From Bacteroidales bacterium (GTDB taxonomy: Bacteria > Bacteroidota > Bacteroidia > Bacteroidales > UBA932), in NCBI GenBank assembly GCA_017428945.1, contig JAFRPW010000027.1, forward strand, positions 7,202 to 71,201: a stretch of 64,000 bases of DNA, written 5' to 3'. The translations under genes were made by a program, and so were the position numbers. This document shows, in pieces, positions 4,240 to 50,030 of this stretch; position 1 is the first letter of the stretch, and the number at the start of each line of letters is the position of its first letter. The notes below the pieces were generated by a model that was given only the letters and a program-made list of their open reading frames with translations, was not told the origin of the DNA and made no database searches.

Positions 4240-5865
4240 CTATTTCATATAACTGTACCTGTAGTCCGTGGGGCTCACAAGGGTTTCCTTGATCACTCTG
4301 GGGATGACCCAGCGGATGAGGTTGAACTCTCCGCCGGCCTTGTCGTTGGTGCCGGATGCACGGGCGCCGCCGAAGGGCTGCATGCCAACCACGGCTCCGG
4401 TGGGCTTGTCGTTGATATAGAAGTTGCCGGCGGCATAACGGAGGCCGTGGGCAATCTTCTCCACGGCAAGGCGGTCACGGCCGAACACCGCGCCTGTGAG
4501 GCCGTAAGGAGAAGTTTCGTCGCAGAGCTTAACGGCTTCGTCCACCTTGTCATCGTCATAAGGATAAACGGTGAGGACGGGGCCGAAGATCTCCTCTTCC
4601 ATGCTCTTGAAATGAGGGTCCGCGGTCTCTATGATGGTGGGTTCAACGAAGTAGCCAACGCTCTTGTCCCTCTTGCCGCCCATCACGATCTTTGCGTCCG
4701 GGGACTGCTCCGCGTAAGTGAGATAGCCGTCGATGTTGTTCCAGGAGGCCTCGTCGATTACGGCGTTGATGAAGTTGGAGTGGTCCATGACGCCTCCCAT
4801 CTTCACCTCGGATGCATACTGCTTCATGATGCCCAGCACTTCCGGCCACAGGCTCCTGGGAACGTACATGCGGGATGCGGCAGAGCACTTCTGGCCCTGG
4901 AACTCGTATGCTCCGCAGAAGGCGGCGGTGGCGACGGCTTTTGCATCGGCAGAAGGATGGACGAAGATGAAGTCCTTGCCGCCGGTCTCTCCCACCAGAC
5001 GGGGATAGCTCACATACTTGCCCAGGTTCTCCCCTGCCTGCCTCCAGAGGCTGTTGAAAGTGCCGGTGGAGCCGGTGAAATGGATGCCGCTGAACCACTT
5101 GGACTCAGTTGCGATCTTGCCGATGAGGGCTCCGCTGCCGGGCAGGAAGTTGATGACTCCGTCCGGAAGACCGGCCTCCTTGTACAGCTGCATGAGGTAA
5201 TAATTGCTTAGCGTAGAAGTGGTTGACGGCTTCCAGAGGGCAACGTTACCCATGAGGACGGGAGTCATGCAGAGGTTGGAGGCGATGGAAGTGAAGTTGA
5301 ACGGGGTCACTGCCAGCACGAAGCCTTCCAGCGGGCGGAACTCCGTATTGTTGATGTTTCCGGCGCCGTTCTTGGGCTGCATGTTATAGATCTTGGAGGC
5401 GTAGTGGACGTTGTAGCGGAAGAAGTCTATGGTCTCGCAGGCGCTGTCTATCTCTGCCTGGTAGATGTTCTTGCTCTGGCCCAGCATGCAGGCAGCGTTC
5501 ATGATGGGACGATATTTTGTGGCCAGCAGCTCCGCCATCTTCATGACTATGGCAGCGCGGGTTGTCCAGGGGGTCTCGCTCCAGATCTTGTGGGCCTCCA
5601 TGGCTGCGTCGATAGCCATCCGGACCTCTTTTTCGCCAACCTTATGGAAAGTTGCCAGTACGTGGCCGTGCTCGTGGGGGCACACCACCTTGCCGGTGTT
5701 CCCGGTGCGGATTTCCTTTCCGCCGATGATGATGGGGATATCCAGAACGGTGTTATACTGACGTTTGAGTTCTGCGTCCAGGGCTATGCGCTCCGGAGAA
5801 CCTTCCAGATAGGATTTCACCGGCTCGTTGGCGGGCACGGGAAAATTGATGATGGCATTGTTCAT
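4240..5865 (-). CDS. pruA: L-glutamate gamma-semialdehyde (P5C) dehydrogenase
   Basis: ALDH motifs PFNF, GETGGKDF, FQGQKCSAASR, EEIFGP, QPFGGARASGTNDKAG. Start reassigned to MNNAIINFP (5865). Confidence 0.92.
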   Translation of the reverse strand: MNNAIINFPVPANEPVKSYLEGSPERIALDAELKRQYNTVLDIPIIIGGKEIRTGNTGKVVCPHEHGHVLATFHKVGEKEVRMAIDAAMEAHKIWSETPWTTRAAIVMKMAELLATKYRPIMNAACMLGQSKNIYQAEIDSACETIDFFRYNVHYASKIYNMQPKNGAGNINNTEFRPLEGFVLAVTPFNFTSIASNLCMTPVLMGNVALWKPSTTSTLSNYYLMQLYKEAGLPDGVINFLPGSGALIGKIATESKWFSGIHFTGSTGTFNSLWRQAGENLGKYVSYPRLVGETGGKDFIFVHPSADAKAVATAAFCGAYEFQGQKCSAASRMYVPRSLWPEVLGIMKQYASEVKMGGVMDHSNFINAVIDEASWNNIDGYLTYAEQSPDAKIVMGGKRDKSVGYFVEPTIIETADPHFKSMEEEIFGPVLTVYPYDDDKVDEAVKLCDETSPYGLTGAVFGRDRLAVEKIAHGLRYAAGNFYINDKPTGAVVGMQPFGGARASGTNDKAGGEFNLIRWVIPRVIKETLVSPTDYRYSYMK

Positions 5866-12334: not shown

Positions 12335-12344
12335 CCTCTCTCCC

Positions 12345-12473
12345 GTCCACCAAAATGCCGTTTTTGGTGGACAAGTTGACGTTTTGGCCGGTTTGTCCAC
12401 CGATTTGGCGTTTTTGGTGGACAAGTTGGCGTTTTGGCGGGTTTGTCCACCGAAATGGGGTGTTTTGGTGGAT
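12345..12473. repeat. REP family A array, 3 hairpin units, 50-bp period
   Basis: GTCCAC at 12345, 12395 and 12445, each closed by GTGGAC/GTGGAT 16-17 nt later; conserved 22-nt linkers aagttg(a/g)cgttttgg(c)cgg(g)ttt. Confidence 0.92.
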
Positions 12474-12503
12474 GGGTGAGGTTTTTTTTTGTATTTTTGT
12501 ACC

Positions 12504-14558
12504 ATGTCAAAGAGAAAATCCAAGAGCCGCGGCGGCGAAAAGCGTGGCGGAAAGAAAAAAGCCCGTAAGTTTGTTCCCGAGTACATAGGAACGGCAAGAA
12601 TGTCCCGTGAGGGATTCATCTTCGTGGCCGTAGAAGGCCAGGAAGAGGACATCTACGTAAAAGCGTCCAAGACAAGGGGCGCGCTGAACGGGGATATCGT
12701 CAAGGTTGCCGTGACCCAGGAGAAGGACGGCCGGGCCAAGAAGCGCAGCGGTGAAATCATTGCCATCGTAGAGCGTTCCACTAAGCCGTTTGTGGGTATC
12801 CTTCATATTGTGGGAAAGCAGGCATGGGTGCTTATGAGCTCCAAGACCATGCCGTACGACATTGAGGTTCCCGTTCCGGAAGGCGCCGTCAAGGGCATGA
12901 AGGTAGCGGCCGTGGTGGACGGCTGGGAGCGCGGTGAAAGCGCTCCTCACGGGCACGTGGTGGACATCCTTGGCATGCCCGGGGAGAACGAGACGGAGAT
13001 GCACGCCATCCTGGCGGAGTTCGGCCTCCCCTACCGCTTCAGCAAGGAGGTGGAAGACGCGGCCGACGGCATTTCGGAAGAGATTACGGACAAGGACCGC
13101 GCCCACCGCAGGGACTTCCGCGGAACCCTCACTTTCACCATCGACCCCGCAGATGCAAAGGACTATGACGATGCCCTGAGCTTCCGCAAACTGGAAAACG
13201 GCAACTACGAGGTAGGCGTCCACATTGCCGATGTCTCCTGGTACGTCAAGCCCGGCAGCGCGGTGGACAAGGAGGCGCAGGAAAGGGGAACATCGGTCTA
13301 TCTTGTGGACCGCACCGTGCCCATGCTGCCGGAAAAACTGTCCAACAAGCTCTGCTCCCTGCGCCCCGGGGAGGAGAAACTCACCTTCAGCGCCGTCTTC
13401 GAGATTACCCCCCAGGCCAAGGTCTTCAACCCCTGGTTCGGCCGCACCAACATAGTCTCCGACTACCGCTTCGCCTACGAGCTGGCGCAGGAAATCATCG
13501 ACGCCGGACCCAAGGAGGCGATGGAGCGGGACTTCGGGGAAGGCAGCGAATGCGGCATAGTTCCGCCGGAGGTGAAAGAGGCCATCCTCGTACTGAACGA
13601 TATTGCCCTGAAGCTCAGGGAAAGGCGCTTCAAGGCCGGAGCGGTGAACTTTGACAGGCCGGAGATGAAGGTGGACATAGACGCCGACGGCAAGCCCGTG
13701 GGCGTGCACCAGAAGTTCTCCCGCGAGGCCAACTGGCTCATAGAGGAGTTCATGCTCCTTGCCAACCGCAATGTGGCGGAATACGTGGCCACCGGCGGAA
13801 AGATGGGCGGGAAAGCCCTGTCAAAGGCCAAGACCTTCGTATATCGTGTGCACGATGAGCCCAACATGGAAAAGATATCGGGCCTGAGGGACTTCGCCGG
13901 GCACTTCGGTTACAAAGTGGGCCAGCTGCAGGGAGGACGCGACGTTGCCGTGGCGCTGAACGGCCTCATGAAAGAGGCCGACGGCAAGCCGGAACTGGCC
14001 GCAATCCAGATCCTTGCCCTGCGCTCGATGGCAAAGGCCTGCTACAGCACGGACAACATAGGCCACTACGGCCTTGCGTTCCGCTTTTACACGCATTTCA
14101 CATCGCCTATCAGGCGATATCCTGACCTCATGGTGCACCGCCTCCTTGCCAAGTACATGGCCGGGGCCGATTCCCAGGACCTGGACTACTACACCCAGCA
14201 GTGCAAGCACGCCTCGGAGCGCGAGGTGGTGGCAGCGGAAGCAGAGCGTGAAAGCACCAAGTACAAGCTTGTGGAATTCATGCAGGACAAGATTGGCCAG
14301 GAGTTCGACGGCCATGTGTCCGGAATAACGGAATGGGGTATCTACGTTGAGATAGAGCCCACCAAGATCGAGGGCATGGTCCCCTACCGCACCATCCGCA
14401 GCGACTTTTACGACTACGACCCGGACAACTACCGCGCCGTGGGCAGGCGTACAAAACGCAAAATCCGCCTGGGAGATCCCCTGCGGATTCGCGTAAAAGG
14501 TACTTCTCTTGAGCAGAAACTGCTTGACTACGAGCTTGTAGAAGACAACATTTCCTAA
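12504..14558 (+). CDS. rnr: Ribonuclease R
   Basis: CSD N-terminus, RNB motifs FTIDPADAKDYDDALS and HFTSPIRRYPDL, C-terminal S1 domain. Confidence 0.95.
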   Translation: MSKRKSKSRGGEKRGGKKKARKFVPEYIGTARMSREGFIFVAVEGQEEDIYVKASKTRGALNGDIVKVAVTQEKDGRAKKRSGEIIAIVERSTKPFVGILHIVGKQAWVLMSSKTMPYDIEVPVPEGAVKGMKVAAVVDGWERGESAPHGHVVDILGMPGENETEMHAILAEFGLPYRFSKEVEDAADGISEEITDKDRAHRRDFRGTLTFTIDPADAKDYDDALSFRKLENGNYEVGVHIADVSWYVKPGSAVDKEAQERGTSVYLVDRTVPMLPEKLSNKLCSLRPGEEKLTFSAVFEITPQAKVFNPWFGRTNIVSDYRFAYELAQEIIDAGPKEAMERDFGEGSECGIVPPEVKEAILVLNDIALKLRERRFKAGAVNFDRPEMKVDIDADGKPVGVHQKFSREANWLIEEFMLLANRNVAEYVATGGKMGGKALSKAKTFVYRVHDEPNMEKISGLRDFAGHFGYKVGQLQGGRDVAVALNGLMKEADGKPELAAIQILALRSMAKACYSTDNIGHYGLAFRFYTHFTSPIRRYPDLMVHRLLAKYMAGADSQDLDYYTQQCKHASEREVVAAEAERESTKYKLVEFMQDKIGQEFDGHVSGITEWGIYVEIEPTKIEGMVPYRTIRSDFYDYDPDNYRAVGRRTKRKIRLGDPLRIRVKGTSLEQKLLDYELVEDNIS

Positions 14559-34858: not shown

Positions 34859-35674
34859 TTATTTTTGATTTGGCAAAACCCAGTGTATGGTTACTCCGTC
34901 CCTTTCCATTCCGCGGAACCATGTCATCTGCCGCTTGGCAAACTGATGGATGGCGTTTCCAAGCAACATGACCATGTCATCGTAACTGTACTTGCCAAGA
35001 AGATACTCCGTGACAAACTTGTACTCAAGGCCATAGTATATCAGATCCTCCGCGGGGATAGTTTTCATCAGATTCTCCACCTCTTCCACCAGGCCCTCCT
35101 TCAGGCGCTCTTCCAGCCTGACGTCAATTCTCCGAACCCTTTCTTCACGGGAGACGAGAGTACCTATAAAAAATGTTTTCCCGGGCAGCCGTCCCGGATC
35201 CACTCCGTTACCTTTCTCAAACTTATACGCACGTGTAACCGATTCTATATAAAGGCCGGAGCCGCCGCATATGATAGGGATGACACCCCTGTCTTTCACC
35301 TCTTGGAAAGCCCTGGCAAACGCCTCCTGATACTGATAGATATTAAACTTTGCACCTGCGGGAGCAATGTCTATGAGGTGGTATGGAACATCACCGTACT
35401 CGGCCAGGTCTTTCCCCGTGCCGATATCCATGCCACGGTATACCTGCCTGGAGTCTGCAGAGAGAATCTCCCCGCGCAGTTCCTTTGCCAGCTGCACGGC
35501 ATACCTGGTCTTGCCGGAAGCAGTGGGGCCAAGGACACAGATGCAATCATACTCACCAGCCTGCAGTGAGCGGTGCAACGCCTCGATGTCTATGGTTTCA
35601 GGCTCCGGCATCCTGGCCATAGGGGGAATCCCAGGCCTGTCCGGCAAGAGCTGTGTCCTGTTCCACTTGTTCAT
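34859..35674 (-). CDS. miaA: tRNA dimethylallyltransferase family protein (MiaA paralog, internally shortened)
   Basis: P-loop GPTASGKT, ADSRQVYRGMDIGTGK, CGGSGLY, HQFAKRQMTWFR. TATTTTTG -7 box at 35679-35686 on the minus strand. Confidence 0.85.
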   Translation of the reverse strand: MNKWNRTQLLPDRPGIPPMARMPEPETIDIEALHRSLQAGEYDCICVLGPTASGKTRYAVQLAKELRGEILSADSRQVYRGMDIGTGKDLAEYGDVPYHLIDIAPAGAKFNIYQYQEAFARAFQEVKDRGVIPIICGGSGLYIESVTRAYKFEKGNGVDPGRLPGKTFFIGTLVSREERVRRIDVRLEERLKEGLVEEVENLMKTIPAEDLIYYGLEYKFVTEYLLGKYSYDDMVMLLGNAIHQFAKRQMTWFRGMERDGVTIHWVLPNQK

Positions 35675-35714
35675 GCCACAAAAATACCAAAAAAACCACT
35701 ATCTTTGCAATCCC

Positions 35715-35793
35715 ATCCACCAAAACACCCCATTTCGGTGGACAAACCCGGCAAAACGGCAACTTGTCCACCAAAAACGCCAAATCGGTGGAC
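35715..35793. repeat. REP family A array, 2 hairpin units (opposite orientation to the 12345 array)
   Basis: ATCCAC 35715..GTGGAC 35743 and GTCCAC 35766..GTGGAC 35793. Confidence 0.9.
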
Positions 35794-35803
35794 AAGCAGC
35801 ATT

Positions 35804-38183: not shown

Positions 38184-40796
38184 ATGACATCGAAAGAAAT
38201 AAGGCAGAAGTTTCTGGACTTCTTCGCTTCAAAGGGACACACCGTTGTTCCCTCCGCCCCCATGGTCATAAAGAACGACCCCACCCTCATGTTCACCAAC
38301 GCTGGCATGAACCAGTTCAAGGATATATTCCTGGGCAACGCCGCCCCCAAATTCCCGCGTGCGGCAGACTCCCAGAAGTGCCTCCGCGTGAGCGGCAAGC
38401 ACAACGACCTTGAGGCAGTGGGCCATGACGGACGCCACCACACCATGTTCGAGATGCTTGGCAACTGGAGCTTCGGAGACTACTTCAAGACAGAGGCCAT
38501 AGACTGGGCATGGGAACTCCTCACGGAGGTTTACAAGATAGACAAGACAAAGCTTTACGCAACCGTATTCGAGGGCTCCGAGGAAGACGGCACCGCCCTT
38601 GACACGGAGGCCCAGGCCGCATGGCTGAGGCATCTCCCCTCAGACCACGTTCTCACCGGAAACAAGCACGACAACTTCTGGGAAATGGGCGACACCGGCC
38701 CCTGCGGCCCCTGCAGCGAGATTCACATCGACCTCCGTCCCGACGAGGAAATTGCGAAGATTCCCGGCCGCGAGCTCGTGAATACGGACAACGACGACGT
38801 CATAGAGATATGGAACCTGGTGTTCATGCAGTATGAGCGCAAGGCCGACGGTCACCTGGAATCCCTCCCGGCAAAGAACATCGACACCGGCATGGGCTTC
38901 GAGCGCCTCTGCATGATTCTCCAGAACAAGAAGAGCAACTACGAGACCGACGTCTTCAGCGGCCTCATCGGCAAGGTAGAGGAATTCTCCGGCCACAAGT
39001 ACGCAGAGGGCGGCAACGTAGAGGTTGCCATGCGCGTGATCGCAGACCACATCCGCGCCATCGCCTTCTCCATCGCCGACGGCCAGCTGCCTTCCAACGT
39101 GAAGGCCGGCTACGTCATCCGCCGAATCCTCCGCCGCGCCGTCCGTTACGGCTACACCTTCCTTGGATTCACGGAGCCTTTCCTCTGCCGCCTCATCCCC
39201 CAGCTGGTTGCCGATATGGGAGAAGCCTACCCGGAACTCCCCGCCCAGGAAAAACTCATCGTCAGCGTAATCCGCGAAGAGGAAAACGCCTTCCTGCGCA
39301 CCCTGGACCGCGGTATCCGCATGCTTGAGGACAACATGGCCCGCAACGCCGCCACCAAGGTGGTCTCAGGAGTGGACGCCTTCGTCCTTTACGACACCTA
39401 CGGCTTCCCCATCGACCTCACCGAACTCATCGCCGCGGAAAAGGGCTACACCGTAGACCTTGAAAGCTTCAATGTAGAGCTCGGCAAGCAGAAGGAGCGC
39501 GCCCGCAACGCTACCGCCAACGAGTTCGGAGACTGGACCGTCTTCTCCGATGACACCGACGTCGAATTCCTCGGCTACGATGTTCTCTCCGTAGAAGGCG
39601 CACGCCTCCTCAAGCAGCGTACCGTGAAGCAGAAGAACAAGGAGCTCTTCCAGCTGGTCTTTGACCGCACCCCCTTCTACGCAGAGATGGGCGGTCAGGT
39701 AGGCGACACCGGCTACATCCAGGGCGCCGACGGCGAAAAGATAGCCATCCTCAACACCGTCAAGGAGAACAACCTTACCATACATCTGGCAGAGCGCCTT
39801 CCCGAAGAGGGCGGCATCTTCACCCTTGTAGTGGACCAGGAGCGCCGCCAGCGCATCATGAACAACCATACCGCTACCCACCTTCTCCACCAGGCCCTCC
39901 GGGAAACCCTGGGAACACACGTGGAGCAGAAAGGCTCCTTCGTGGGACCGGACTATTTCCGTTTCGACTTCTCCCACTTCCAGAAAGTCACGGACGATGA
40001 GCTCCGCACAGTAGAACGCCGTGTCAACCAGCTCATAAGGGCCGATTACCCTCTCTGCGAAAAGCGTGACGCCCGCCTGGAAGAAGCCCGCGCAATGGGT
40101 GCGATGGCCCTGTTCGGAGAAAAGTACGGCGATGTTGTACGCGTAGTGCGCTTCGGAGACTCCGTAGAGCTCTGCGGCGGCACTCACACCCGCAGCACCG
40201 GCACCATCGGCCTGTTCAAGATCAAGGCGGAAAGCGCTGTGGCTGCCGGCGTACGCCGTATCGAGGCTCTCACCGGCGCAGGCGCGGAGCAGGGCGTCGA
40301 GGTCATGGAAGACCTCCTGAAAGGCCTTAAGAGCCTGTTCAACAACGTCCCGGACCTCACCGGTGCCATAGAGAAGCTGGTTGCAGAGAATGCCGAGGCC
40401 AAGAAACAGCTGGAAGAGGTTGCGAGCGAGAAGGCCGCAGCCCTTGCAGCCCGCCTGGAGGCCGCTGCCGTCGAGATGAACGGCATCAAGGTGGTCCGCT
40501 TCGACAGCTCCATTGACCCGGCCATCGCCAGGAACGTGGCACTCATGTTGCAGAAAAAGATGGAGAACTTTGTGCTGGCAGGCGCCTTTGCATACGCAGA
40601 GAAGCCAAACCTGGTGCTCATGTACTCCAACGACCTCGTTGCCAAGGGCAAGAACGCCGGTAAGGACATCCGCGAAGCCGCAAAGCTCATTCAGGGCGGC
40701 GGCGGCGGCCAGCCCGGTCTTGCCACCGCAGGCGGCCGCCTCACCGAAGGACTCCCTGCCGCACTTGACAAACTTGTAGAAATCGCCATAGCTTGA
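38184..40796 (+). CDS. alaS: Alanine--tRNA ligase
   Basis: [28 protein letters not shown], editing motifs HTATHLLH and ELCGGTH, DHHA1 GGGGG end. -7 box TATCTTTG at 38156-38163. Confidence 0.98.
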
Positions 40797-43297
40797 AGAA
40801 ATTAGACCAGTTCTTGTTGAAGTCTTTCGTAGGACCGTTCATCGCGATCCTGGCGATTGTTACGTTCATACTGGTCTTGCAGTTTCTTTGGCTGTACATA
40901 GACGAGCTGGTTGGTAAAGGCTTGGAGCTCAAGGTTATACTTGAGTTCCTCATGTGGGGTAGCTGCCAGACCCTGCCGCTGGCCATACCGCTGGCAACGC
41001 TGCTCAGCTCCATGATGACGCTGGGGCAGATGGGAGAGCAGTTCGAGCTCACCGCCATCAAGGCATCGGGCATTTCCCTCACGAGGGTGCTCTTCCCCAT
41101 GGTCATAGTGGCCATCCTCATTTCCATCGGCGCCTTCTACATCACGGACCGCCTGGTTCCCTATTCCATCAACCAAATCTACACCATGAGGGACGATATC
41201 GGCCGCACAAAGTCGGAGATAAAAATCCCCACCGGAACCTTCTACGACGGCATCGAGGGCTACATCCTCCGCGTCGAGGACAGGGACAAGAGCACCGGCA
41301 TGATGTACAAGATACAGGTTTACGACCACACCGTGGGCAAAGGCAACACCCGGATAACGGTAGCGGACAGCGGCGTCATAAAGATGTCCAAGAGCAAGGA
41401 CTACCTCACTTTCCAGCTCTACGACGGCACCAACTACCAGGAGGACAACAAACGGAAGTACAGGGACACCACCCTGGCGCTCCAGAGGGTACATTTCCGC
41501 AGCCAGGAACTGGTGATTCCGCTGGAGAACTACGCTTTCCACCACTCCGACAGCGCCCGGTACGGTGAACAGGTCCGCTCCATGAGCCTCAAGGATCTCC
41601 GGCACGGGCACGATTCCCTGTCCAATCTGGTGGCAGAGGGTGCAGACAAGCATCTGAAGGAGTTCTCCAACCAGAACAGCCTCACCTACCGCGCCCAGCT
41701 GGACACATCATGGCGGGAGAAGGCATCGACAACCCTGCCGCTCCCCGGAGAGAGGAAGTGGACATCCCTGAAGGATAAGCTCAGGGGCTACGAGAACGCC
41801 GCCACCGCCGCCCGCCAGTTCGAGAACCTCCTCCACAGCCAGGGCATGGAAGGCTACAATTACACCAACCTGATTCGCCGCACGGACGTGGAGATTTGGA
41901 AGAAGTACGCCACGGCGCTCGCCTGCCTGCTGCTGTTCTTCATCGGCGCACCGGTTGGAGCCATCCTCAAAAAAGGCGGTCTGGGTACTCCTGCCATTAT
42001 CTCACTGCTGTTCTTCGTGCTGTACTGGGTGGTGGACATCACCGGCGAGCGCCTTGGAAACAACGGCACCGTGACGCCATTCGTGGGCAAATTCATATCG
42101 GCCTTCGTGCTGGCGCCGATAGGAGGGCTGCTTACTGTCAAGGCGGTGCAGGACAAGAGCATCTTCAACGTTGACGGCCTCAAGATATGGATAAGGAAAG
42201 CCAAGAGTAAACTCATTCGCATGTTCAGGAAAACAAGAATAGTGTACATGGGCACTCCGGAGTTCTCCGTAGGCCCTCTGGACGGTCTTCTGAAGGCCGG
42301 ATACAAAGTAATCGGAGTAGTTACCGCCCCGGACAAACCTTCCGGACGCGGTCTCAAGGTCAGTGAATCGGCGGTGAAGAAATACGCCGTGGAGAAAGGC
42401 ATTCCGGTTCTGCAGCCGGAAAAACTCAAGGATCCGGAATTCCTCATGGCCCTGAGCAACTGGAAGGCCGATCTGTTTGTAGTGGTAGGCTTCAGGATGC
42501 TGCCGGAAGCGGTCTGGAAAATGCCCAAGCTGGGCACATTCAACCTCCACGCCGCCCTGCTTCCGCAGTATCGCGGCGCCGCCCCCATCAACTGGGCCGT
42601 CATAAACGGAGAGAACATCACCGGTGTAACCACCTTCATGATAGACAGCAGGATAGACACCGGCGGCATCATACTCCGTTCAGAATGCCGCGTGGAGCCC
42701 ACGGACACCGCCGGAACCCTTCACGACAAGCTCATGGCAATAGGTACCGACCTGGTTGTCGAGACTGTCGAGGGCATAATCCAGCACAATATTGAGCTCC
42801 GCGTCCAGCGCAGTTTCATCCAGGGTGACGAGCTCCTCAAGCCCGCACCCAAGCTCACCCGGGAACTCCAGCACATAGACTGGAATGCCCCCACCCGCAC
42901 CGTTTACAACCTTGTCCGCGGCCTTTCCCCCTTCCCCTGCGCTTTTACTGAGTTGGTACCTGGAGGAGAGGCTGCGCCCTCCGTCATTCCCGGCTCCGCT
43001 TCCTCCGTCATTCCCGGCTCCGACCGGGAATCTCCCCTCCAGCTGAAGGTGTACTTCGGAGAGATGCGCTATGACCTCCACGCCGCCCCCGGAACCGTGC
43101 TCAGCGACGGCAAGACATACTTTGCCATAGCCACCCAGGACGGGGCCCTGGCCATCACGGACCTCCAGCTCGCCGGCAAGAAGCGCATGGACGTCAAGTC
43201 CTTCCTCCTTGGCTTCCGTAACCCCACATCGTACACCACCACCCCCGGCACCTCCTCCTCCGAGCTCGCCAAAGCCGCCCCCGTGGAGGACAATTAA
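40793..43297 (+). CDS. fmt: LptF/LptG-family permease fused in frame to methionyl-tRNA formyltransferase
   Basis: Residues 1-~476 are YjgP/YjgQ-like ([44 protein letters not shown]). From codon 477 (ATG 42221): [37 protein letters not shown]. No stop codon between them. Confidence 0.88.
42978..43031 (+). repeat. In-frame palindromic insertion in Fmt (24-bp tandem duplication plus ATTCCCGG-N6-CCGGGAAT hairpin)
   Basis: cctccgtcattcccggctccg at 42978 and 43002; 8-bp perfect stem 43010-43017/43024-43031; encodes [18 protein letters not shown]. Confidence 0.7.
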
Positions 43298-43305
43298 CCC
43301 CCCTT

Positions 43306-43515
43306 CCGTAGACAAACCCCGGTTTTCGCCTACTTATCCACCAAAAACGCCAAATCGGTGGACGAACCCGGCAAAACCCCGACTTATCCACCAAAACACC
43401 CCTTTTCCGTGGACAAACCTGGCAAAACGTCAACTTATCCACCAAAACACCCCATTTCCGTGGACAAACCCGGCAAAACCCCAACTTGTCCACCAAAAAC
43501 GCCAAATCGGTGGAC
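43306..43515. repeat. REP family A array, 4 full hairpin units plus a half unit
   Basis: (A/G)TCCAC at 43336, 43386, 43437 and 43488, each closed by GTGGAC; 50-51-bp period. Confidence 0.93.
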
Positions 43516-43545
43516 GGATGGGGGAAAATGATTATCTTTGCTGAT

Positions 43546-44187
43546 ATGAAACGCATTGTCATATTATGTAACGGGGCTTTCCCCACGGAACCGTTTCCGC
43601 TGTTCCTTCTGGACAATGCGGAAGGCGTGGTTTGCTGCGACGGCTCGGTCATCAAGTGGCTGGCGTACAATCCCCAGGCTGCGCCTATGGTGATTGTCGG
43701 GGATATGGACTCTCTGCCTGAGGAACTGAGGGTGCGGTTTTCCGGCATTGTTTACCATGAGACAGAGCAGGACTACAATGACCTCACAAAAGCCATGCGT
43801 TGGGTTCTCCGTGAGCATCCGGAGGTTCAGGAAATAACCATCCTGGGCGCAACTGGCCTTAGGGAAGACCACACCATCGGCAACCTTGGCCTTCTCATGG
43901 AATACACCCGCCTCTTTGACCTTGGGGACCGCAAGGTGACCATGGTGAGCGACTTCGGGACCGCCTTCGCCATAACAGACAGCTGCGACCTCCACCTGGG
44001 TGAAGGCCGCAGAGTATCGCTTTTCAGTGCCGACAATACGTTGAAGATATCCTCAACGGGGCTTCAGTGGCCCACGGACGATGTTGTCTTTGACGCCTGG
44101 TGGAAGGCAACCTTGAACCGGACTACGGAACCAATCGTCATGCTGCGGTTCAATCACCCTTCCGCGGCACTTGTAATTACAGACTGA
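43546..44187 (+). CDS. Thiamine pyrophosphokinase
   Basis: VVCCDG, IVGDMDS, EQDYNDLTKA, GATGLREDHTIGN, GLQWP. Start MKRIVIL follows TATCTTTG (43533-43540). Confidence 0.88.
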   Translation: MKRIVILCNGAFPTEPFPLFLLDNAEGVVCCDGSVIKWLAYNPQAAPMVIVGDMDSLPEELRVRFSGIVYHETEQDYNDLTKAMRWVLREHPEVQEITILGATGLREDHTIGNLGLLMEYTRLFDLGDRKVTMVSDFGTAFAITDSCDLHLGEGRRVSLFSADNTLKISSTGLQWPTDDVVFDAWWKATLNRTTEPIVMLRFNHPSAALVITD

Positions 44188-45037
44188 AATTCCGGCTGGC
44201 AAACGGCAGGGCGGTTCTGAGAGATACGTGCCAGTACTCCCAGTTGTGTACTCCGTCCCTTACACGGAATTCCGCCTTTACTCCTTTCTCACGCATCTTG
44301 GCATAGAAGGCTGTGCTGAGATCGAAGATGAAGTCGTCGTCTCCGCAGTCCACGAACCACTTTACTGTTCGCAGGTTTTCGAGGGTGGCGTCATCGGCCT
44401 TGTCAAGGAAATCTATGGCAGAATGCCGGCTCACTGCGCGCTGGGTGAAGGTGAACTTGGTGGTGGGCTGCTTCTGAGTGCCTGAACTGACCTCATTCAT
44501 CTTATTATCCAGCCACGGGCTCATTGCATAGCAGCTGGAGAACATGTCCGGATGGCGCTGGCAGTACACTATTGAGCCGCCGCCTCCCATGGAAAGACCC
44601 ATTATCGCTCGCGCCTGCTTGCTTCCGCCGCAATTGAATTTTTCCTCTACATTTGGAAGGAATTCAGTGAAGAAATAGTTCTCATACGGCCATTCAGGCA
44701 TGTTGAAGTATCCGTTGGGATAGTTGTGGATGTCCTTGTCTCCGGCATTGGGCATTACAATCACAACTGGCACGAGTTCTCCTGAGCGGATTAGCTCATC
44801 GGCAACCCAGCTTATCCTGCCAAGATTGTCCCAGGCGGTGTAGTCGTCCGAGAGACCATGGAGGAGGTATATCACGGGATAGTGATTGGCGGCATCGTAC
44901 CCTTCGGGCAGATACACGTTGTACTTCTGGTCTGCATCCAGCTTGCTGCTGTGGATGCTCTCCGTAACGATACGGCTCTGCGCCGCGGCAGCAACTGCCG
45001 CCGCCAAAAGCGCCACAATGACGATAATGCGTTTCAT
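44177..45037 (-). CDS. Secreted alpha/beta-hydrolase esterase (CE1/Fes-like)
   Basis: Signal peptide, YPVIYLLHG, nucleophile elbow GLSMGG, DCGDDDF, GVHNWEYW. The true start is MKRIIVI (45037); the longer ORF call is REP read-through. Confidence 0.88.
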   Translation of the reverse strand: MKRIIVIVALLAAAVAAAAQSRIVTESIHSSKLDADQKYNVYLPEGYDAANHYPVIYLLHGLSDDYTAWDNLGRISWVADELIRSGELVPVVIVMPNAGDKDIHNYPNGYFNMPEWPYENYFFTEFLPNVEEKFNCGGSKQARAIMGLSMGGGGSIVYCQRHPDMFSSCYAMSPWLDNKMNEVSSGTQKQPTTKFTFTQRAVSRHSAIDFLDKADDATLENLRTVKWFVDCGDDDFIFDLSTAFYAKMREKGVKAEFRVRDGVHNWEYWHVSLRTALPFASRNFSL

Positions 45038-45104
45038 ATCAGCAAAGATAATCATTTTCCCCCATCCGTCCACAGATTTGGCGTTTTTGGTGGATAAGTT
45101 GGGG
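45026..45104 (-). repeat. 79-bp inverted copy of 43479-43557 (REP hairpin, -7 box and start codons)
   Basis: The reverse complement matches 43479-43557 with 2 mismatches. Confidence 0.92.
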
Positions 45105-45310
45105 GTTGGTGGATACAAAAGCCAAAGTATCAAATCCGGAACCTTCAGAAACGTATAATTTTTTCGCAATGCCCTACAGATATCCAGGAGAGCGTTTTTG
45201 ATAGTGTTTCTGAATTTCAATCGGTGGAAAGACACACAATCGTTTAAAAAGATTATACGAATCTGAAGGTGAGTTTTCCGGAGAGCTTTTAAATTTGGCA
45301 AAAACTGCTT

Positions 45311-46222
45311 ATGGCAACGATACAAGAGGAACTGTTCCAGCGTTCCAAACCATTTTTCCACTATTGTTCCCTGCCATTCGAGGATGCTCTTCTATACGAT
45401 GACGACAAACAGATGGGCGCAGTCCTGAACTTCATTGCTGTGGCGCTGATGCATGTCCCGGGCTGCAGGCTTCTGGCTTTTGCAGTGATGTCAAACCACA
45501 TTCACCTGGTGGTGGAGGGAGAACGTCCTTACTGCGACGTCTTTATAGGAAAGCTTACCGAGTTGCTGGATAATTATTATCGATATAACGGGAAGGCCCG
45601 TCTTAGCGGGCACATCGAATTTGAGGCAATCCACATTGACTCTTTAAGGATGCTTCGGGCAGAGATAATTTACACTATCCGCAACCCGTTCGTCGTAAGG
45701 ACCGATGTGAATGTATTTGCTTGCCCTTCCACCAGCGGATATCTGTACTTCAACCCTATGCTTAAGCGTGAAGGCATACCCGCTTCGAACCTCCGGGGAA
45801 GGGCCCTGAGGGACTTCCTGCATACACGCAACGTGATTGCGCTGACTGACAGGTTCTATGTAAAAGACGGCGCTGCGCAGCCCTGGAGTTTCGTGGATTA
45901 TGAAAGAGCAATGTCGTTCTTCCCCAGCGCCAGGGACTTCGTACTAGGGACCATAAGAAATGTCGAAGGACAGGTAGAGATAGCCAACAGGCACGGAGAA
46001 CCAGTCTCTCTTGCCGACCAGGAAGTTCTTTCACTGGCATATCGTCTGTGCGGAGAACGATATGGTAATGTGAAACTCTCAAACCTTGGCACCACGGAAA
46101 GAATGCAGCTTGGCCTGAAGTTGAAAAACGAGTACCGCGTCTCCAACGGCCAGATTGCCCGTACTTTGGGGCTGTCCCTCAAGGACGTGAACGCCATGTT
46201 CCCCCTTTCCGCCAAGATTTAA
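45311..46222 (+). mobile_element. HUH/Y1 tyrosine transposase, REP-associated (RAYT/TnpA-REP-like), with a C-terminal HTH
   Basis: FAVMSNHIHLVV (HUH), IIYTIRNP (catalytic Tyr, YxxxNP), STSGY, C-terminal VSNGQIARTLGLS helix-turn-helix. Flanked by family A hairpins on both sides; TAAATTTG -7 box at 45290-45297. Confidence 0.82.
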
Positions 46223-46230
46223 GCCAGGCC

Positions 46231-46359
46231 ATCCACCAAAACCCCGCATTTCCGTGGACAAACCCGCCAAAACGCCAACTTGTCCACAAAAAACGCCAAA
46301 TCCGTGGACAAACCCCGAAAAACGGGCACTTGTCCACGGAAAACGTCATTTTGGTGGAT
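46231..46359. repeat. REP family A array, 3 hairpin units, directly downstream of the RAYT-like gene
   Basis: ATCCAC 46231, GTCCAC 46282 and 46332, closed by GTGGAC/GTGGAT at 46254, 46304 and 46354. Confidence 0.92.
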
Positions 46360-46367
46360 GGTAACGG

Positions 46368-47732
46368 CTACTTGTTCAGCTGGTCGGCGCTCTGGATGAA
46401 CTTGGCCAGGTCTTCGTCGGAGACGTGGTAGTTCTGCATCTCGCCGGAGAAGTAGCTGTCGTAGGCGCTCATATCCACGAAGCCGTGGCCGGAGAGGTTG
46501 AAGAGGATGGTTTTCTTCTCGCCTGTTTCTTTGCACTTCAGGGCTTCCTGGATGGTGGCGGCAATGGCATGGCAGCTCTCTGGAGCGGGGATGATGCCCT
46601 CTGTCTGGGCAAACAGCACTCCCGCGGCGAAGGAATCCTTCTGCTCGATGTCCACGGCCTCCATGAAGCCGTCCTTCATGAGCTGGGAAAGGATGACGCC
46701 TGCGCCGTGGTAGCGGAGACCGCCGGCGTGGATGGAGGCGGGCTTGAAGGTATGTCCAAGGGTGAACATGGGGAGAAGCGGTGTCATGCCGGCCTCGTCA
46801 CCAAAGTCGTACTCGAACTTGCCCCTGGTGAGTTTGGGGCAGGAGTACGGCTCGGCTGCGATGAAACGGGTCTTCTTGCCTTCCAGGATATTGTGGCGCA
46901 TGAACGGGAATGCAATTCCGGAGAAGTTGGAGCCGCCTCCGAAGCAGGCAATCACTATGTCCGGGTACTCTCCCGTCAGTTCCATCTGCTTCTCCGCCTC
47001 AAGGCCGATGACCGTCTGGTGCATGCACACGTGGTTCAGGACCGATCCCAGTGCGTATTTGCAGTTGGGGGTGGAGACGGCCAGTTCGATGGCCTCGGAG
47101 ATGGCGCAGCCAAGGGAGCCCTTGTCGTTGGGGTTACGGGTGATGATGTCCTTTCCGGCGCGGGTGGACATTGAAGGGGAAGGAGTGATGGCGGCGCCGA
47201 AAGCCTGCATGATGGAGCGACGGTAGGGCTTCTGCTCATAGCTTATCTTTACCATGTAGACAGCGCAGTCAATGCCGAATTTCTTTGTGGCATAGCTCAG
47301 TGCACCGCCCCACTGGCCGGCACCGGTCTCCGTGGTGAGGTTGGTGATGCCCTGCTCCTTGGCGTAGTATGCCTGGGCTATTGCGGAGTTCAGCTTGTGG
47401 CTGCCGGCGGGGGATACGCTCTCGTTCTTGAAATAGATGTGGGCGGGAGTGCCAAGGGCGGCTTCAAGCTCGTATGCGCGCACAAGTGGTGTGCAGCGGT
47501 ATGCGGCATACTGCTCGCGTACGGGCTCGGGGATGGGAATCCACTGGTCGGTCTGGTTCAGCTCCTGGTCTGCGCAGGCCTTGCAGAAGATGGGGTAGAG
47601 GTCTTCCGGCTTAAGCGGCTGGCGCGTTGCGGGATGAAGGAACGGCAGCGGTTTGTTGGGCATTATGGCCTGGATGTTAAAATAATGGGTGGGGATTTCG
47701 CTCTCCGGGAGCATGTATTTTTTCTGTCTCAT
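46368..47732 (-). CDS. trpB: TrpB2-type tryptophan synthase beta-like PLP enzyme (stand-alone)
   Basis: GSHKLNSAIAQAYY (PLP Lys), TETGAGQWG, GGGSNF, HAGGLRYHG, FNLSGHG. Confidence 0.92.
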   Translation of the reverse strand: MRQKKYMLPESEIPTHYFNIQAIMPNKPLPFLHPATRQPLKPEDLYPIFCKACADQELNQTDQWIPIPEPVREQYAAYRCTPLVRAYELEAALGTPAHIYFKNESVSPAGSHKLNSAIAQAYYAKEQGITNLTTETGAGQWGGALSYATKKFGIDCAVYMVKISYEQKPYRRSIMQAFGAAITPSPSMSTRAGKDIITRNPNDKGSLGCAISEAIELAVSTPNCKYALGSVLNHVCMHQTVIGLEAEKQMELTGEYPDIVIACFGGGSNFSGIAFPFMRHNILEGKKTRFIAAEPYSCPKLTRGKFEYDFGDEAGMTPLLPMFTLGHTFKPASIHAGGLRYHGAGVILSQLMKDGFMEAVDIEQKDSFAAGVLFAQTEGIIPAPESCHAIAATIQEALKCKETGEKKTILFNLSGHGFVDMSAYDSYFSGEMQNYHVSDEDLAKFIQSADQLNK

Positions 47733-47764
47733 GGTTCGTTTGTATTAAGTGTTGATAAATAATC

Positions 47765-47830
47765 AAAAAAAATGGCCTGCTGTAAGTCAGCAGGCCACTA
47801 TAATAATAACTACGGCAAAGCGACTTACAG
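47765..47830 (-). promoter_or_regulatory. Transcription attenuator (terminator/antiterminator) upstream of trpB2
   Basis: 10-bp stem 47773-47782/47788-47797 followed by U8 on the minus strand. An alternative 9-bp pairing (47822-47830 with 47780-47788) overlaps it. Confidence 0.85.
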
Positions 47831-47875
47831 TTTTGAGCTGCAAGTGCGCCACCAGCTATTGTTGTTCTTTCTCAT
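47825..47875 (-). CDS. trpL: Trp leader peptide MRKNNNSWWRTCSSKL
   Basis: 16-codon ORF with tandem TGG TGG, ending in the antiterminator arm; below the ORF-track size cutoff. Confidence 0.85.
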   Translation of the reverse strand: MRKNNNSWWRTCSSKL

Positions 47876-47921
47876 TCTTTTGCAAAGGTGTCAAAAAGAA
47901 TTCTTTAATGCAAGAAATATT

Positions 47922-48683
47922 TTAAAAATTTTCAACAAGTGCCGCCGTGAACTGGTGAGAGGCGGTTACATAGTTGGCCTCGATGAAGGCGTTGATTGCC
48001 GTGGCGACAAACAGAAGGATGATGACTGCCGCTACAATGGTGCCGATTACCTTAAGGCGGACCAGCCACTTCTTGTTGTTCCAGCCGATGGTCTGGAACA
48101 TGCTCCAGAAGCCGTGGTTGATGTGCAGGAAAATTGCGATGAACCACACGATGTAAAAAGCGACCACCCACCAGTTCTTGAAGGTAGTGAGAAGGAGGTA
48201 GTACGGATTCTCCGCCTCGCCGCCAAGGAATTCCTGCAGCTGCATCTTTGCCCAGAAATGGTTGAGATGGAAGCAGAGGAAGCCAAGGACTATCACGCCA
48301 AGGATGGCCATGTTCTTTGCGGCCCAGGAGTCGTTCTTGGCTTTGGAGGGGACCTCGTAACGCTTGATTCCGCCGCGCTTTTTCAGGTTCTCATAGCTGA
48401 GCCAAATACCATATACAATATGAATAAGGAAGCCAAGCGCAAGGATGGGGACCATGATGTCGATGACGGGGGTGGACATGAAGTCGCAGCCAAGCTGGAA
48501 CCAGCCGTCTCCGGTAGAGAAGCGGACGGCGTCATCGGCCACCTTGCCGAATACTCCGTTCAGGGAGTCTATGACGGAGAAGAAGTTGATGGTTCCGTGG
48601 AGCAGCAGGAAGACGATAAGAAAGGCACCGGAGATGCTCTGAATGAACTTCTTGCCGATAGATGAGGTCAGGAAATTAGCCAT
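47922..48683 (-). CDS. sdhC: Succinate dehydrogenase/fumarate reductase cytochrome b subunit (Bacteroidetes type)
   Basis: SSIGKKFIQSISGAFLIVFLLLH, LIHIVYG, LCFHLNHFW, FLHINHGFWSMFQTIGW (heme His ligands). Confidence 0.85.
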   Translation of the reverse strand: MANFLTSSIGKKFIQSISGAFLIVFLLLHGTINFFSVIDSLNGVFGKVADDAVRFSTGDGWFQLGCDFMSTPVIDIMVPILALGFLIHIVYGIWLSYENLKKRGGIKRYEVPSKAKNDSWAAKNMAILGVIVLGFLCFHLNHFWAKMQLQEFLGGEAENPYYLLLTTFKNWWVVAFYIVWFIAIFLHINHGFWSMFQTIGWNNKKWLVRLKVIGTIVAAVIILLFVATAINAFIEANYVTASHQFTAALVENF

Positions 48684-48785
48684 GTATGGTTGTTTTTGCA
48701 ATTATCAATTATGCAAATATAGGAATCTTTCTTGGAAGTTTCCCAATATTTCAATACTTTTGTTTAATCGAATAAACCACACATC

Positions 48786-49490
48786 ATGTATAAGAGAGTA
48801 CTTCTGAAACTTAGCGGTGAAAGCCTTGGCGGCCCTGCCGGAAAGGGTCTCGAAACAGCCTCGCTGGAGGCATATGCAAAAGAAATTGCAGCGGCGGCAA
48901 AGGCCGGCCTGCAGGTAGCCATCGTCAATGGCGGCGGCAATATTTTCCGCGGCCTGCAGGGAGTGGGCAAGGGCTTCGACCGGGTGGACGGAGACAAGAT
49001 GGGAATGCTTGCAACCGTCATCAACTCCCTGGCTCTGTCCATGTTCATCAAGGCCCAGGGCGTTGACGCAGTGGTGTTTACATCCACTCCCATGGAGCCC
49101 CACGCCAAGTACTACATGAGGGACGATGCCGTTGCCGTCATGGAGCGCGGCGGTGTAGCCCTCATAGCCGGCGGAACCGGCAACCCCTTCTTCACCACGG
49201 ATTCCGGCGCAGCTCTCAGGGCCCTGGAAATAGGGGCCGATGCTCTCCTGAAGGGCACCCGTGTTGACGGCGTGTACACCGCAGACCCGGAGAAAGATCC
49301 ATCGGCAACAAAATACGATGAACTCTCCTTCTCGGAGGCCATCTCCAAGCGCCTCAAGGTCATGGACCAGACGGCCTACGCCCTTTGCCAGGACGGCAAC
49401 ATGCCCATCATCGTCTTCGATATGAATACCCCTGGGAACCTCACCCGGCTCCTCAAAGGAGAAAAAGTTGGCACACTGGTACATCCGTAA
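48786..49490 (+). CDS. pyrH: Uridylate kinase
   Basis: YKRVLLKLSGE, GGGNIFRG, GGTGNPFFTTDS, VDGVYTADP. Confidence 0.97.
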   Translation: MYKRVLLKLSGESLGGPAGKGLETASLEAYAKEIAAAAKAGLQVAIVNGGGNIFRGLQGVGKGFDRVDGDKMGMLATVINSLALSMFIKAQGVDAVVFTSTPMEPHAKYYMRDDAVAVMERGGVALIAGGTGNPFFTTDSGAALRALEIGADALLKGTRVDGVYTADPEKDPSATKYDELSFSEAISKRLKVMDQTAYALCQDGNMPIIVFDMNTPGNLTRLLKGEKVGTLVHP

Positions 49491-49523
49491 TGCAAGATTT
49501 GCCCGTCCACGGATTATTAAGGT

Positions 49524-50030
49524 ATGAAAGCAAGAATCAAACATATTTACGAGATCATTGCCGGGGCAATACTCTCGCTTCTGGGGTTCAACGGATGTGA
49601 TGAGAATATCTTTTTAGGCCCCGTGGAGTACGGGATGCCGCACGCAACCTTTGAGGTAAAAGGCACAGTCAAGGCAGAAGATACCGGAGAGTCCGTCAAG
49701 GGCATAAAAGTCAAGTTGCGCCATTACACAGAAGGGATGGAAGACGAGAACGGCAATCCGCGTTACACAGAGTTGGAGATGCAGTCGGACCAGGACGGCA
49801 AGGTGGACGGCTCCTTCGGGGGGTTATGGCCTTATTACGACGATCTTCAGATCACCTTCGAGGATGTTGACGGAGGGGAAAACGGCGGCTGGTTCGCTCC
49901 GGACACAATTAAAGTTTCAGATTTGAATATAACCCTGGAAGAGGACAAGAAGTCAACCTGGAACAAGGGTACATATCATATATCCTTTGACGAAAAACTC
50001 AAAAGGGACTATACACAGCCGGTAGACTAG
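49524..50030 (+). CDS. Radical SAM-associated putative lipoprotein (TIGR04134-like), copy 1
   Basis: Lipobox LGFNGC25 and VEYGMPHATFEVKGTV; abuts the radical SAM gene. Confidence 0.78.
   Translation: MKARIKHIYEIIAGAILSLLGFNGCDENIFLGPVEYGMPHATFEVKGTVKAEDTGESVKGIKVKLRHYTEGMEDENGNPRYTELEMQSDQDGKVDGSFGGLWPYYDDLQITFEDVDGGENGGWFAPDTIKVSDLNITLEEDKKSTWNKGTYHISFDEKLKRDYTQPVD

Follow-up and report, generated by a model that had tools for sequence, protein, structure and literature searches.

Probable gene conversion of a promoter and start codon, with recurrent inversion, between REP-anchored inverted repeats in rumen Bacteroidales

Introduction

Two unrelated genes that converge on one another in a 64,000-nt stretch of a Bacteroidales genome (assembly GCA_017428945.1, contig JAFRPW010000027.1, positions 7,202 to 71,201; hereafter the window) begin with the same upstream signal and the same first four codons. 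One encodes a thiamine pyrophosphokinase (TPK) and the other a secreted esterase, and the shared sequence lies in the arms of an inverted repeat that also contain repetitive extragenic palindromic (REP) sequences. This raises the question of how genes without common ancestry came to share an expression signal and an N-terminus, and whether a neighboring gene resembling those of REP-associated tyrosine transposases (RAYTs) was responsible. Based on comparisons with related loci, we consider that the most probable answer (probability roughly 0.7) is general homologous recombination between the REP-anchored inverted repeats, which produced both gene conversion and recurrent inversion of the segment and through which a promoter and an N-terminus were captured.

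Results

The inverted repeat and its two genes

A repeat search of the window identified an 85-nt inverted repeat whose arms are 95% complementary and lie 1462 nt apart. A preliminary description of the locus, made from the sequence alone, had reported a near-identical inverted repeat with two differences in 79 nt, and both the search and a direct comparison confirmed this: 43479-43557 and the reverse complement of 45026-45104 differ only at 43488 (G/A) and 43509 (G/T), leaving an exact core of 48 nt (43510-43557). The same description had placed a REP hairpin, a -7 box and an ATG AAA CGC ATT-type start in both arms. These were indeed found, as each arm comprises one REP hairpin, GGATGGGGGAAAATGAT, the -7 box TATCTTTG, 5 nt and ATGAAACGCATT. 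The 42-nt portion of the arm outside the REP, GGATGGGGGAAAATGATTATCTTTGCTGATATGAAACGCATT, occurs exactly twice in the window with up to three mismatches allowed, and the expected number of copies was 0 (100 shuffles). The features of the segment are as follows.

43476-43560, + strand: left arm, with REP unit, GGATGGGGG, AAAATGAT, -7 box and ATGAAACGCATT
43533-43540, + strand: -7 box TATCTTTG of the TPK gene, 5 nt upstream of its ATG, read from the sequence
43546-44187, + strand: TPK, 213 aa (PF04263, PF21275 and TIGR01378, the last at 1.4e-30)
44177-45037, - strand: secreted PF00756 esterase, 286 aa (PF00756 at 1e-34)
45043-45050, - strand: -7 box TATCTTTG of the esterase gene, read from the sequence
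45023-45107, - strand: right arm, with the esterase -7 box, its ATG (45035-45037) and a REP hairpin (45068-45095)

The profile matches to TIGR01378 and PF00756 uphold the gene identities given earlier, and the esterase N-terminus, MKRIIVIVALLAAAVAAAAQS, is signal-peptide-like. The two convergent genes overlap by 11 nt at their 3' ends (44177-44187). This overlap is conserved in relatives and there is no terminator between the genes, and transcription initiated at both of the identical promoters would be bound to collide.

The -7 consensus of Bacteroidetes promoters is TAnnTTTG (PMC7366714). The 5-nt spacing between box and ATG would imply a leaderless or nearly leaderless mRNA; only about 3.7% of the 5' untranslated regions of Bacteroides thetaiotaomicron are shorter than 10 nt (PMC7366714). 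Exact-protein look-ups with the MKRI starts of TPK and esterase gave no match in the collection. Versions starting MIIFADMKRI were matched, as a 219-aa TPK and a 292- or 318-aa esterase. The in-frame ATG that begins these public calls (43528 on the + strand, 45055 on the - strand) sits inside the promoter module, and it is probably an annotation artefact of the shared cassette and not the true start, because the orthologs lack it and it lies over part of the -7 box region.

Misassembly at a junction had been named as the finding that would undo the description, and this was not upheld. Three independent ENA metagenome contigs, compared at the DNA level, have the orientation of the window and differ from it at only 0-1 positions over 12.7 kb. 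In short Logan contigs the sequence breaks off after exactly 30 nt of each arm (at 43528 and 45055). With the k of 31 that we assumed for Logan, this distance equals k-1 and indicates a break induced by the repeat, and these contig ends were set aside as uninformative about inversion. Rfam had no match within 42500-46600.

The promoter is native to the esterase gene

To trace the origin of the shared signal, we compared about 170 related loci, all from rumen Bacteroidales metagenome-assembled genomes (MAGs) or metagenomes, which were gathered by genome and metagenome scans with TPK and by contig look-ups; labels such as L008 and L117 denote individual loci. The genes alaS, lptFG-fmt and TPK are colinear in most of these loci, with about 50 genome loci and about 70 metagenome loci having fmt and TPK side by side and in the same direction. 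In most loci the stop codon of fmt and the start of TPK overlap (gaagATGAATAG), and the encoded kinase has the N-terminus MNS[IV]VIL; the ortholog start that overlaps the fmt stop is ATGAATAGC (MNSI). These data indicate that TPK was ancestrally coupled to fmt in translation, with the start MNSI. In the window, the space between the two genes is occupied by a REP array, and TPK codons 2-3 are K-R, as in the esterase, the ancestral N-S having been replaced.

40793-43297, + strand: LptF/LptG permease-methionyl-tRNA formyltransferase fusion (lptFG-fmt), 834 aa, a single open reading frame
43298-43515, + strand: REP array from the fmt stop to TPK, approximately five units of 50 nt each; hairpin starts at 43337, 43387, 43438 and 43489

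The lptFG-fmt fusion is also called as one gene in relatives (806-840 aa). The fmt C-terminal region of the window contains a perfect 21-nt direct repeat with 24-nt spacing (42978-43022), which duplicates PSVIPGS.

The esterase gene is often convergent with TPK among the relatives. In the REP-free loci L009, L049 and L041, the esterase has TA..TTTG, then 4-5 nt, then ATGAAACG[CTG]ATT. In L117 (TPK 87% identical), which has none of these REPs and no RAYT, aaaatgattatctttgtagatATGAAACGTATT precedes the esterase, and no comparable sequence was found upstream of TPK. The occurrence of the esterase box and of MKRI in REP-free relatives shows that the promoter is native to the esterase and that TPK was the recipient. 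When the TPK-side modules of REP-bearing relatives were aligned locally with the L117 esterase promoter, the scores were 14-18; the maximum over 2181 ATG-proximal sites of the window, used as a control, was 11. These empirical scores ruled out the possibility that the TPK-side promoter is just a generic promoter consensus. The suggestion that a promoter and an N-terminus had been donated to a second gene was therefore supported, and the orthologs gave it a direction, from esterase to TPK.

L117 carries a different palindromic element, made of GGTGACGTACGTCACC units, at the same two intergenic sites (3877-3990 and 5512-5625 of that locus). The element forms a 114-nt direct repeat of 86% identity flanking TPK and esterase. 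Palindromic elements seem to accumulate preferentially at these two intergenic sites, which would make them hot spots.

Lineage-specific end points of the stretch shared by the arms

All REP-bearing lineages had a REP and module on one or both sides of the TPK-esterase pair, and the stretch shared by the two sides ended at differing points. The TPK-side sequences formed a series.

L008, L072 and L150: gactatatttgcggagtATGAACAG, TPK start MNSI
L070/L071, a 97% sister of the window: gattatctttgTGGTGTATGAACGGC, TPK start MNGI
Window: gattatctttgctgatATGAAACGC, identical to its own esterase arm, TPK start MKRI

In L070/L071 the TPK arm matches the esterase arm only as far as the -7 box, though the repeat reaches 161 nt on the REP side. 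The identity of the window arms runs 17 nt beyond this end point, 12 nt of which lie in esterase-specific coding sequence, and there TPK becomes MKRI. Over 44 aligned columns, the arms within one genome differed at 0 positions in the window, 7 in L070, 7 in L072 and 14 in L008. The TPK-side arm of the window differs from orthologous TPK-side arms at 7-10 positions, as against none from its own partner. The arms thus evolve in concert; homogenization was partial in both L070 and L072, and it was weak in L008. The length of the repeat also varies among lineages (85, 161 and 63 nt).

Transfer was not confined to one direction, as the spacer on the esterase or gene X side in L072 resembles the TPK type. 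Gene X is a small lipoprotein gene that lies between the cassette and the esterase in some lineages (5483-5995 in L072) and is paralogous to 49524-50006 of the window. L166 keeps only its first three codons (about 5480-5500, minus strand), and these are fused in frame before the esterase ATG (ATGAAAGCAATGAAACGC; MKAMKRI...).

Blocks of identity that are anchored on the REP and end at lineage-specific points look like the tracts of repeated gene conversion. The preliminary description had inferred copying linked to REP/RAYT. Agency of a RAYT was not supported, and such ends resemble those of ordinary gene conversion.

The segment has been inverted repeatedly

The TPK-esterase segment was inverted relative to fmt and RAYT in four lineages.

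L008: inverted, 1 contig
L072/L073/L144: inverted, 3 contigs
L150/L153/L154: inverted, 3 contigs, TPK 91% identical to that of the window
L166-L170: inverted, 5 contigs

The order from fmt to TPK was retained in the window, L070/L071, L158/L159, L155-L157, L117 and all outgroups. In the inverted loci L008, L072, L150 and L166, colinearity with the window changes inside the arms that hold the REP and the cassette. Opposite orientations were also found in sister pairs, namely L008 and L117 (92% identical) and L072 and L155 (92-94%). Fitch parsimony on a neighbor-joining tree of the lptFG-fmt gene gave four changes of orientation in 100 of 100 bootstraps. On this tree, the orientations require that the segment flipped at least four times in evolution.

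No mixture of orientations was seen within any lineage represented by 2-5 independently assembled contigs. The earlier proposal that the repeats allow inversion thus stands for a recurrent evolutionary event, with at least four changes and breakpoints in the arms, and not for a switch within populations, each lineage having one orientation. The proposal that gene expression had been rewired held for the capture of a promoter by TPK. It was weak for the inversion, which leaves the proximal promoters unchanged and can alter only read-through from fmt.

The REP arrays and the RAYT-like gene

The window contains 13 REP hairpins in five intergenic arrays. The final unit of the array between fmt and TPK forms part of the left repeat arm; by folding it has a 7-bp stem, a 14-nt loop and a dG of -6.2 kcal/mol. 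A tetranucleotide, GTAG or CGTC, is conserved at the 5' foot of REP hairpins (PMC3733652), and neither was found next to the stem in the REP unit ACTTGTCCACCAAAAACGCCAAATCGGTGGACAAACCCGGCAAAACCCCA. The REP in the right arm (45068-45095) doubles as the 5'-flanking REP of the RAYT-like gene, on the far side of which lies a further array.

45311-46222, + strand: RAYT-like gene, 303 aa, product divergent and Y1 HUH transposase-like, with NHIH at residues 62-65 and YTIRNP at 121-126
46229-46361, + strand: REP array downstream of the RAYT-like gene, three units, the first two inverted relative to the REP at 45068-45095

The gene is thus flanked by REPs in opposite orientation (45068-45095 and 46231-46309), 45068-45095 being complementary to the REPs at 46270-46309. 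The REP family was found in related lineages carrying the RAYT-like gene and was missing from most outgroup loci. Residues H63, H65, Y121 and N125 of the protein are invariant across 29 homologs. A 53% homolog is called RayT by the Joint Genome Institute, and the motifs agree with RAYT subclass 2.6, which is mostly from Bacteroidetes and has secondary structures described as "atypical" (PMC6006769). The match to the Pfam Y1_Tnp profile was weak (E = 0.14; 12.8 bits against a cut-off of 23). A profile search of the PDB returned IS200-like transposases at E = 0.13 over the HUH region only, and a single-sequence AlphaFold model (pLDDT 46.6) was too poor for use. We therefore accept the 303-aa protein as putatively RAYT-like, at the level of motifs only. 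The locus as a whole is best explained as the seat of a REP/RAYT system that belongs to a rumen Bacteroidales clade (Candidatus Cryptobacteroides-like MAGs).

The array at 46229-46361 is also a breakpoint of rearrangements in relatives. The block beyond RAYT (a PALP enzyme, a 253-aa gene and pyrH; 46229-49493) is inverted or rearranged in several lineages (L072, L155 and L166), and L072 has lost the RAYT gene at this locus. The whole RAYT neighborhood is rearrangement-prone.

Similar sequences at other sites

Two other REP array ends in the window lie directly upstream of genes.

12343-12507, + strand: REP array end before RNase R, whose start is at 12504
35674-35795, - strand: REP array end before a 271-aa gene, whose start is at 35674

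Both have promoters that are alike, with GGTGGATGGG, a T-rich tract, TATTTTTG, 4 nt and ATG. The far end of the second array lies 11 nt from the ATG of an smpB-like gene (about 35805).

Within 1.34 Mb of fetched loci, a single copy of the module was found outside the TPK/esterase locus. It lies 18 nt upstream of RNase R in L162 (1440-1500) and L163 (1-60; GCA_017616815.1, JAFZXL010000091) and reads cgtGGATGG followed by GGGGAAAATGATTATATTTG, with no REP hairpin near it. RNase R of the window has a REP array where L162/L163 carries this copy.

Discussion

Gene conversion and inversion between REP-anchored repeats

Based on these comparisons, we propose the following series of events. Oppositely oriented REPs on both sides of the TPK-esterase pair would have seeded short inverted repeats, and the insertion of repeats between fmt and TPK would have ended the translational coupling of TPK. 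The part of the esterase signal nearest the REP may then have been copied to the TPK side in an ancestor of those lineages that bear REPs. Later conversion tracts would begin in the REP homology and end variably on the gene side, lengthening the arms into the promoter, and crossovers between the arms would invert the intervening 1.5-2 kb segment. In the window lineage, the latest tract may have run through the start codon to codon 4, which would account for both the 48-nt exact core and the change of the TPK start from MN(S/G)I to MKRI. As the -7 box lies only 4-5 nt from the esterase ATG, a tract of about 45 nt would carry a complete expression unit.

The machinery would presumably be that of general homologous recombination. 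Each gene keeps the same proximal promoter after an inversion, so that any effect is confined to read-through from fmt; the inversions are probably close to neutral, consistent with rare events fixed by drift. Neither catalysis by a RAYT nor rapid phase switching is needed for this explanation.

Several observations weigh against it. With 48 nt of exact identity and 63-161 nt overall, the arms are short substrates for exchange by RecA, and the RAYT-like gene adjoins the segment in seven of the eight REP-bearing lineages. L117 and L155 lack a TPK-side module, yet are nested among lineages that have one, which would require loss or transfer between lineages. The TPK-side promoter of L158 has little specific similarity to its own esterase promoter. 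The copy upstream of RNase R in L162/L163 indicates spread beyond the repeat pair, which local conversion does not explain. Finally, the arm box is a putative working promoter, a role predicted from its consensus and conservation.

Alternative explanations

The RNase R copy leads to a broader possibility, in which the REP, GGATGG and "GGGGAAAATGAYTATMTTTG" together form a portable leaderless module that has been spread by REP/RAYT activity, or by ectopic conversion anchored on REPs, and has repeatedly been re-oriented. We regard this proposal as doubtful. If it is true, a portable module would drive gene X as well as TPK and the esterase, and would also drive RNase R in another genome, and the REP systems of Bacteroidales would be promoter donors and local inversion engines, not passive extragenic repeats.

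It is quite unlikely, in our estimation, that the RAYT-like Y1 transposase itself copied or moved the REP with adjacent DNA, and inverted the segment by cutting and rejoining REP hairpins. Its gene does lie directly beside the segment in nearly all REP-bearing lineages, every breakpoint is at a REP, including those of the rearrangements at the array downstream of RAYT, and the module also occurs at the unlinked RNase R, which in the window is the site of a REP array. GGATGG adjoins the array ends and has the same position in REP-free relatives, and so could mark a target site. However, the stretch shared by the arms ends differently in each lineage and grades outward from the REP, as fits homology-driven conversion, and no second hairpin bounds the copied promoter. 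Moreover, L072 is inverted and yet has no RAYT gene at the locus, and the putative transposase is only weakly recognizable as a Y1 enzyme.

A third explanation would be that the ends of REP arrays bring their own outward-facing leaderless promoter, TPK and esterase having gained the module by separate REP insertions. The similar promoters at the two other array ends of the window are in its favor, as is L150, which retains GGATGGGTTGGGG and the -7 box before the esterase without a REP hairpin. We consider it decidedly unlikely because the -7 box and ATG of the esterase, equally spaced, occur in outgroups that lack REPs, the specific sequence AAAATGATTATCTTTGTAGAT is present in L117, likewise without REPs, and the identity of the window arms continues into esterase-specific coding sequence for 12 nt. 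In addition, REP-free L160 shares the RNase R promoter of the window, which indicates that the arrays sit upstream of pre-existing promoters. For the RNase R site, the idea that the REP array itself supplies the promoter was rejected, as a 93% relative has the promoter but no REP hairpins there.

We find it very improbable that the segment is an active phase-variable inverton, in which site-specific flipping at high frequency would switch the gene that receives fmt read-through. Inverted repeats do bracket the segment, with at least four orientation changes among close lineages, and invertons are common in Bacteroidales (PMC8748976, PMC4747536). The fmt-proximal gene is without its own module in L155 and without REP hairpins in L150, a hint that read-through matters. 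Each lineage, however, had one orientation across 2-5 independent contigs, and the assemblies ran straight through the repeat. The arms differ in length and sequence among lineages, unlike a conserved recombinase site. As the -7 box and ATG are inside both arms, inversion disconnects neither gene and there is no ON/OFF logic. A scan for recombinase domains, which covered the products of the five adjacent genes and not the remainder of the genome, found none.

There is a negligible probability that faulty assembly produced the repeat or the opposite orientations of relatives: all the data do come from metagenome assemblies and the short-k Logan contigs break at the repeat, but the window arrangement recurs in assemblies of independent samples, the inverted orientation occurs in 3, 3 and 5 independent contigs of three lineages, and the exact repeats, of no more than 48 nt, fall short of both typical read lengths and the k of 141 suggested by k141 contig names.

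Comparison with known systems

The inverted tufA and tufB genes of Salmonella, which undergo both gene conversion and inversion, are a similar case. In Wolbachia, inversion has occurred by recombination between the terminal inverted repeats of insertion sequence (IS) elements (PMC3004938). As there, both orientations are found among related genomes, the repeats contain the breakpoints and the arms show concerted evolution. In contrast to the IS and tuf cases, the arms here belong neither to a single mobile element nor to a duplicated gene; they consist of a host-domesticated REP unit with a captured promoter and start codon, and their extent on the gene side increases and decreases from lineage to lineage. 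The locus is distinct from these known cases of inversion and conversion in having a promoter derived from the host and a co-converted start codon.

In REP/RAYT (REPIN) systems, the transposase genes are flanked by inverted REPs (PMC6006769; also Bertels and Rainey 2011, cited by way of PMC3390384). The present locus is similar in having a single RAYT-like gene between oppositely oriented REPs, a dispersed REP family (five arrays in 64 kb) and motifs that fit Bacteroidetes subclass 2.6. It differs in that its protein falls below the Pfam Y1_Tnp threshold and has 303 aa, compared with 179 aa tabulated for subclass 2.6, and in that the hairpins are weak, with no evident GTAG/CGTC tag. We know of no copying of promoters or start codons to neighboring genes in REP/RAYT biology.

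The Correia repeat-enclosed elements of Neisseria are promoter-bearing miniature repeats (PMC2649163), and they too join a small dispersed repeat to a promoter, such that different genes share an upstream signal. Unlike those elements, whose own ends form a promoter on insertion, the core described here is native to the esterase and free of REPs in relatives, and so appears to have hitch-hiked next to a REP. The invertons of Bacteroidales (PMC4747536, PMC8748976) share with the present locus the host order, inverted repeats and invertible DNA with -7 box promoters. They differ in that here the promoters are in the arms and not between them, and two whole genes are carried on the segment. In addition, neither a nearby recombinase nor a mixture of orientations was detected.

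Significance

REPs are usually discussed as terminator-like, mRNA-stabilizing or selfish elements. The locus described here provides, in uncultured rumen Bacteroidales, a dated, stepwise natural series in which REP homology would have let a TPK orphaned from its operon capture the promoter of its neighbor and, in one lineage, the first codons of that neighbor as well, after which the inverted repeats let the segment flip at least four times. Where promoters are compact and apparently leaderless, a conversion tract of about 45 nt may be sufficient to move an entire expression signal to another gene. When unrelated proteins have identical N-termini, these can be a footprint of recombination and need not be a common signal for targeting. 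Gene callers have probably given both genes a wrong start, at the ATG inside the promoter. Should the module be mobile across the genome, REP systems would supply regulatory innovation.

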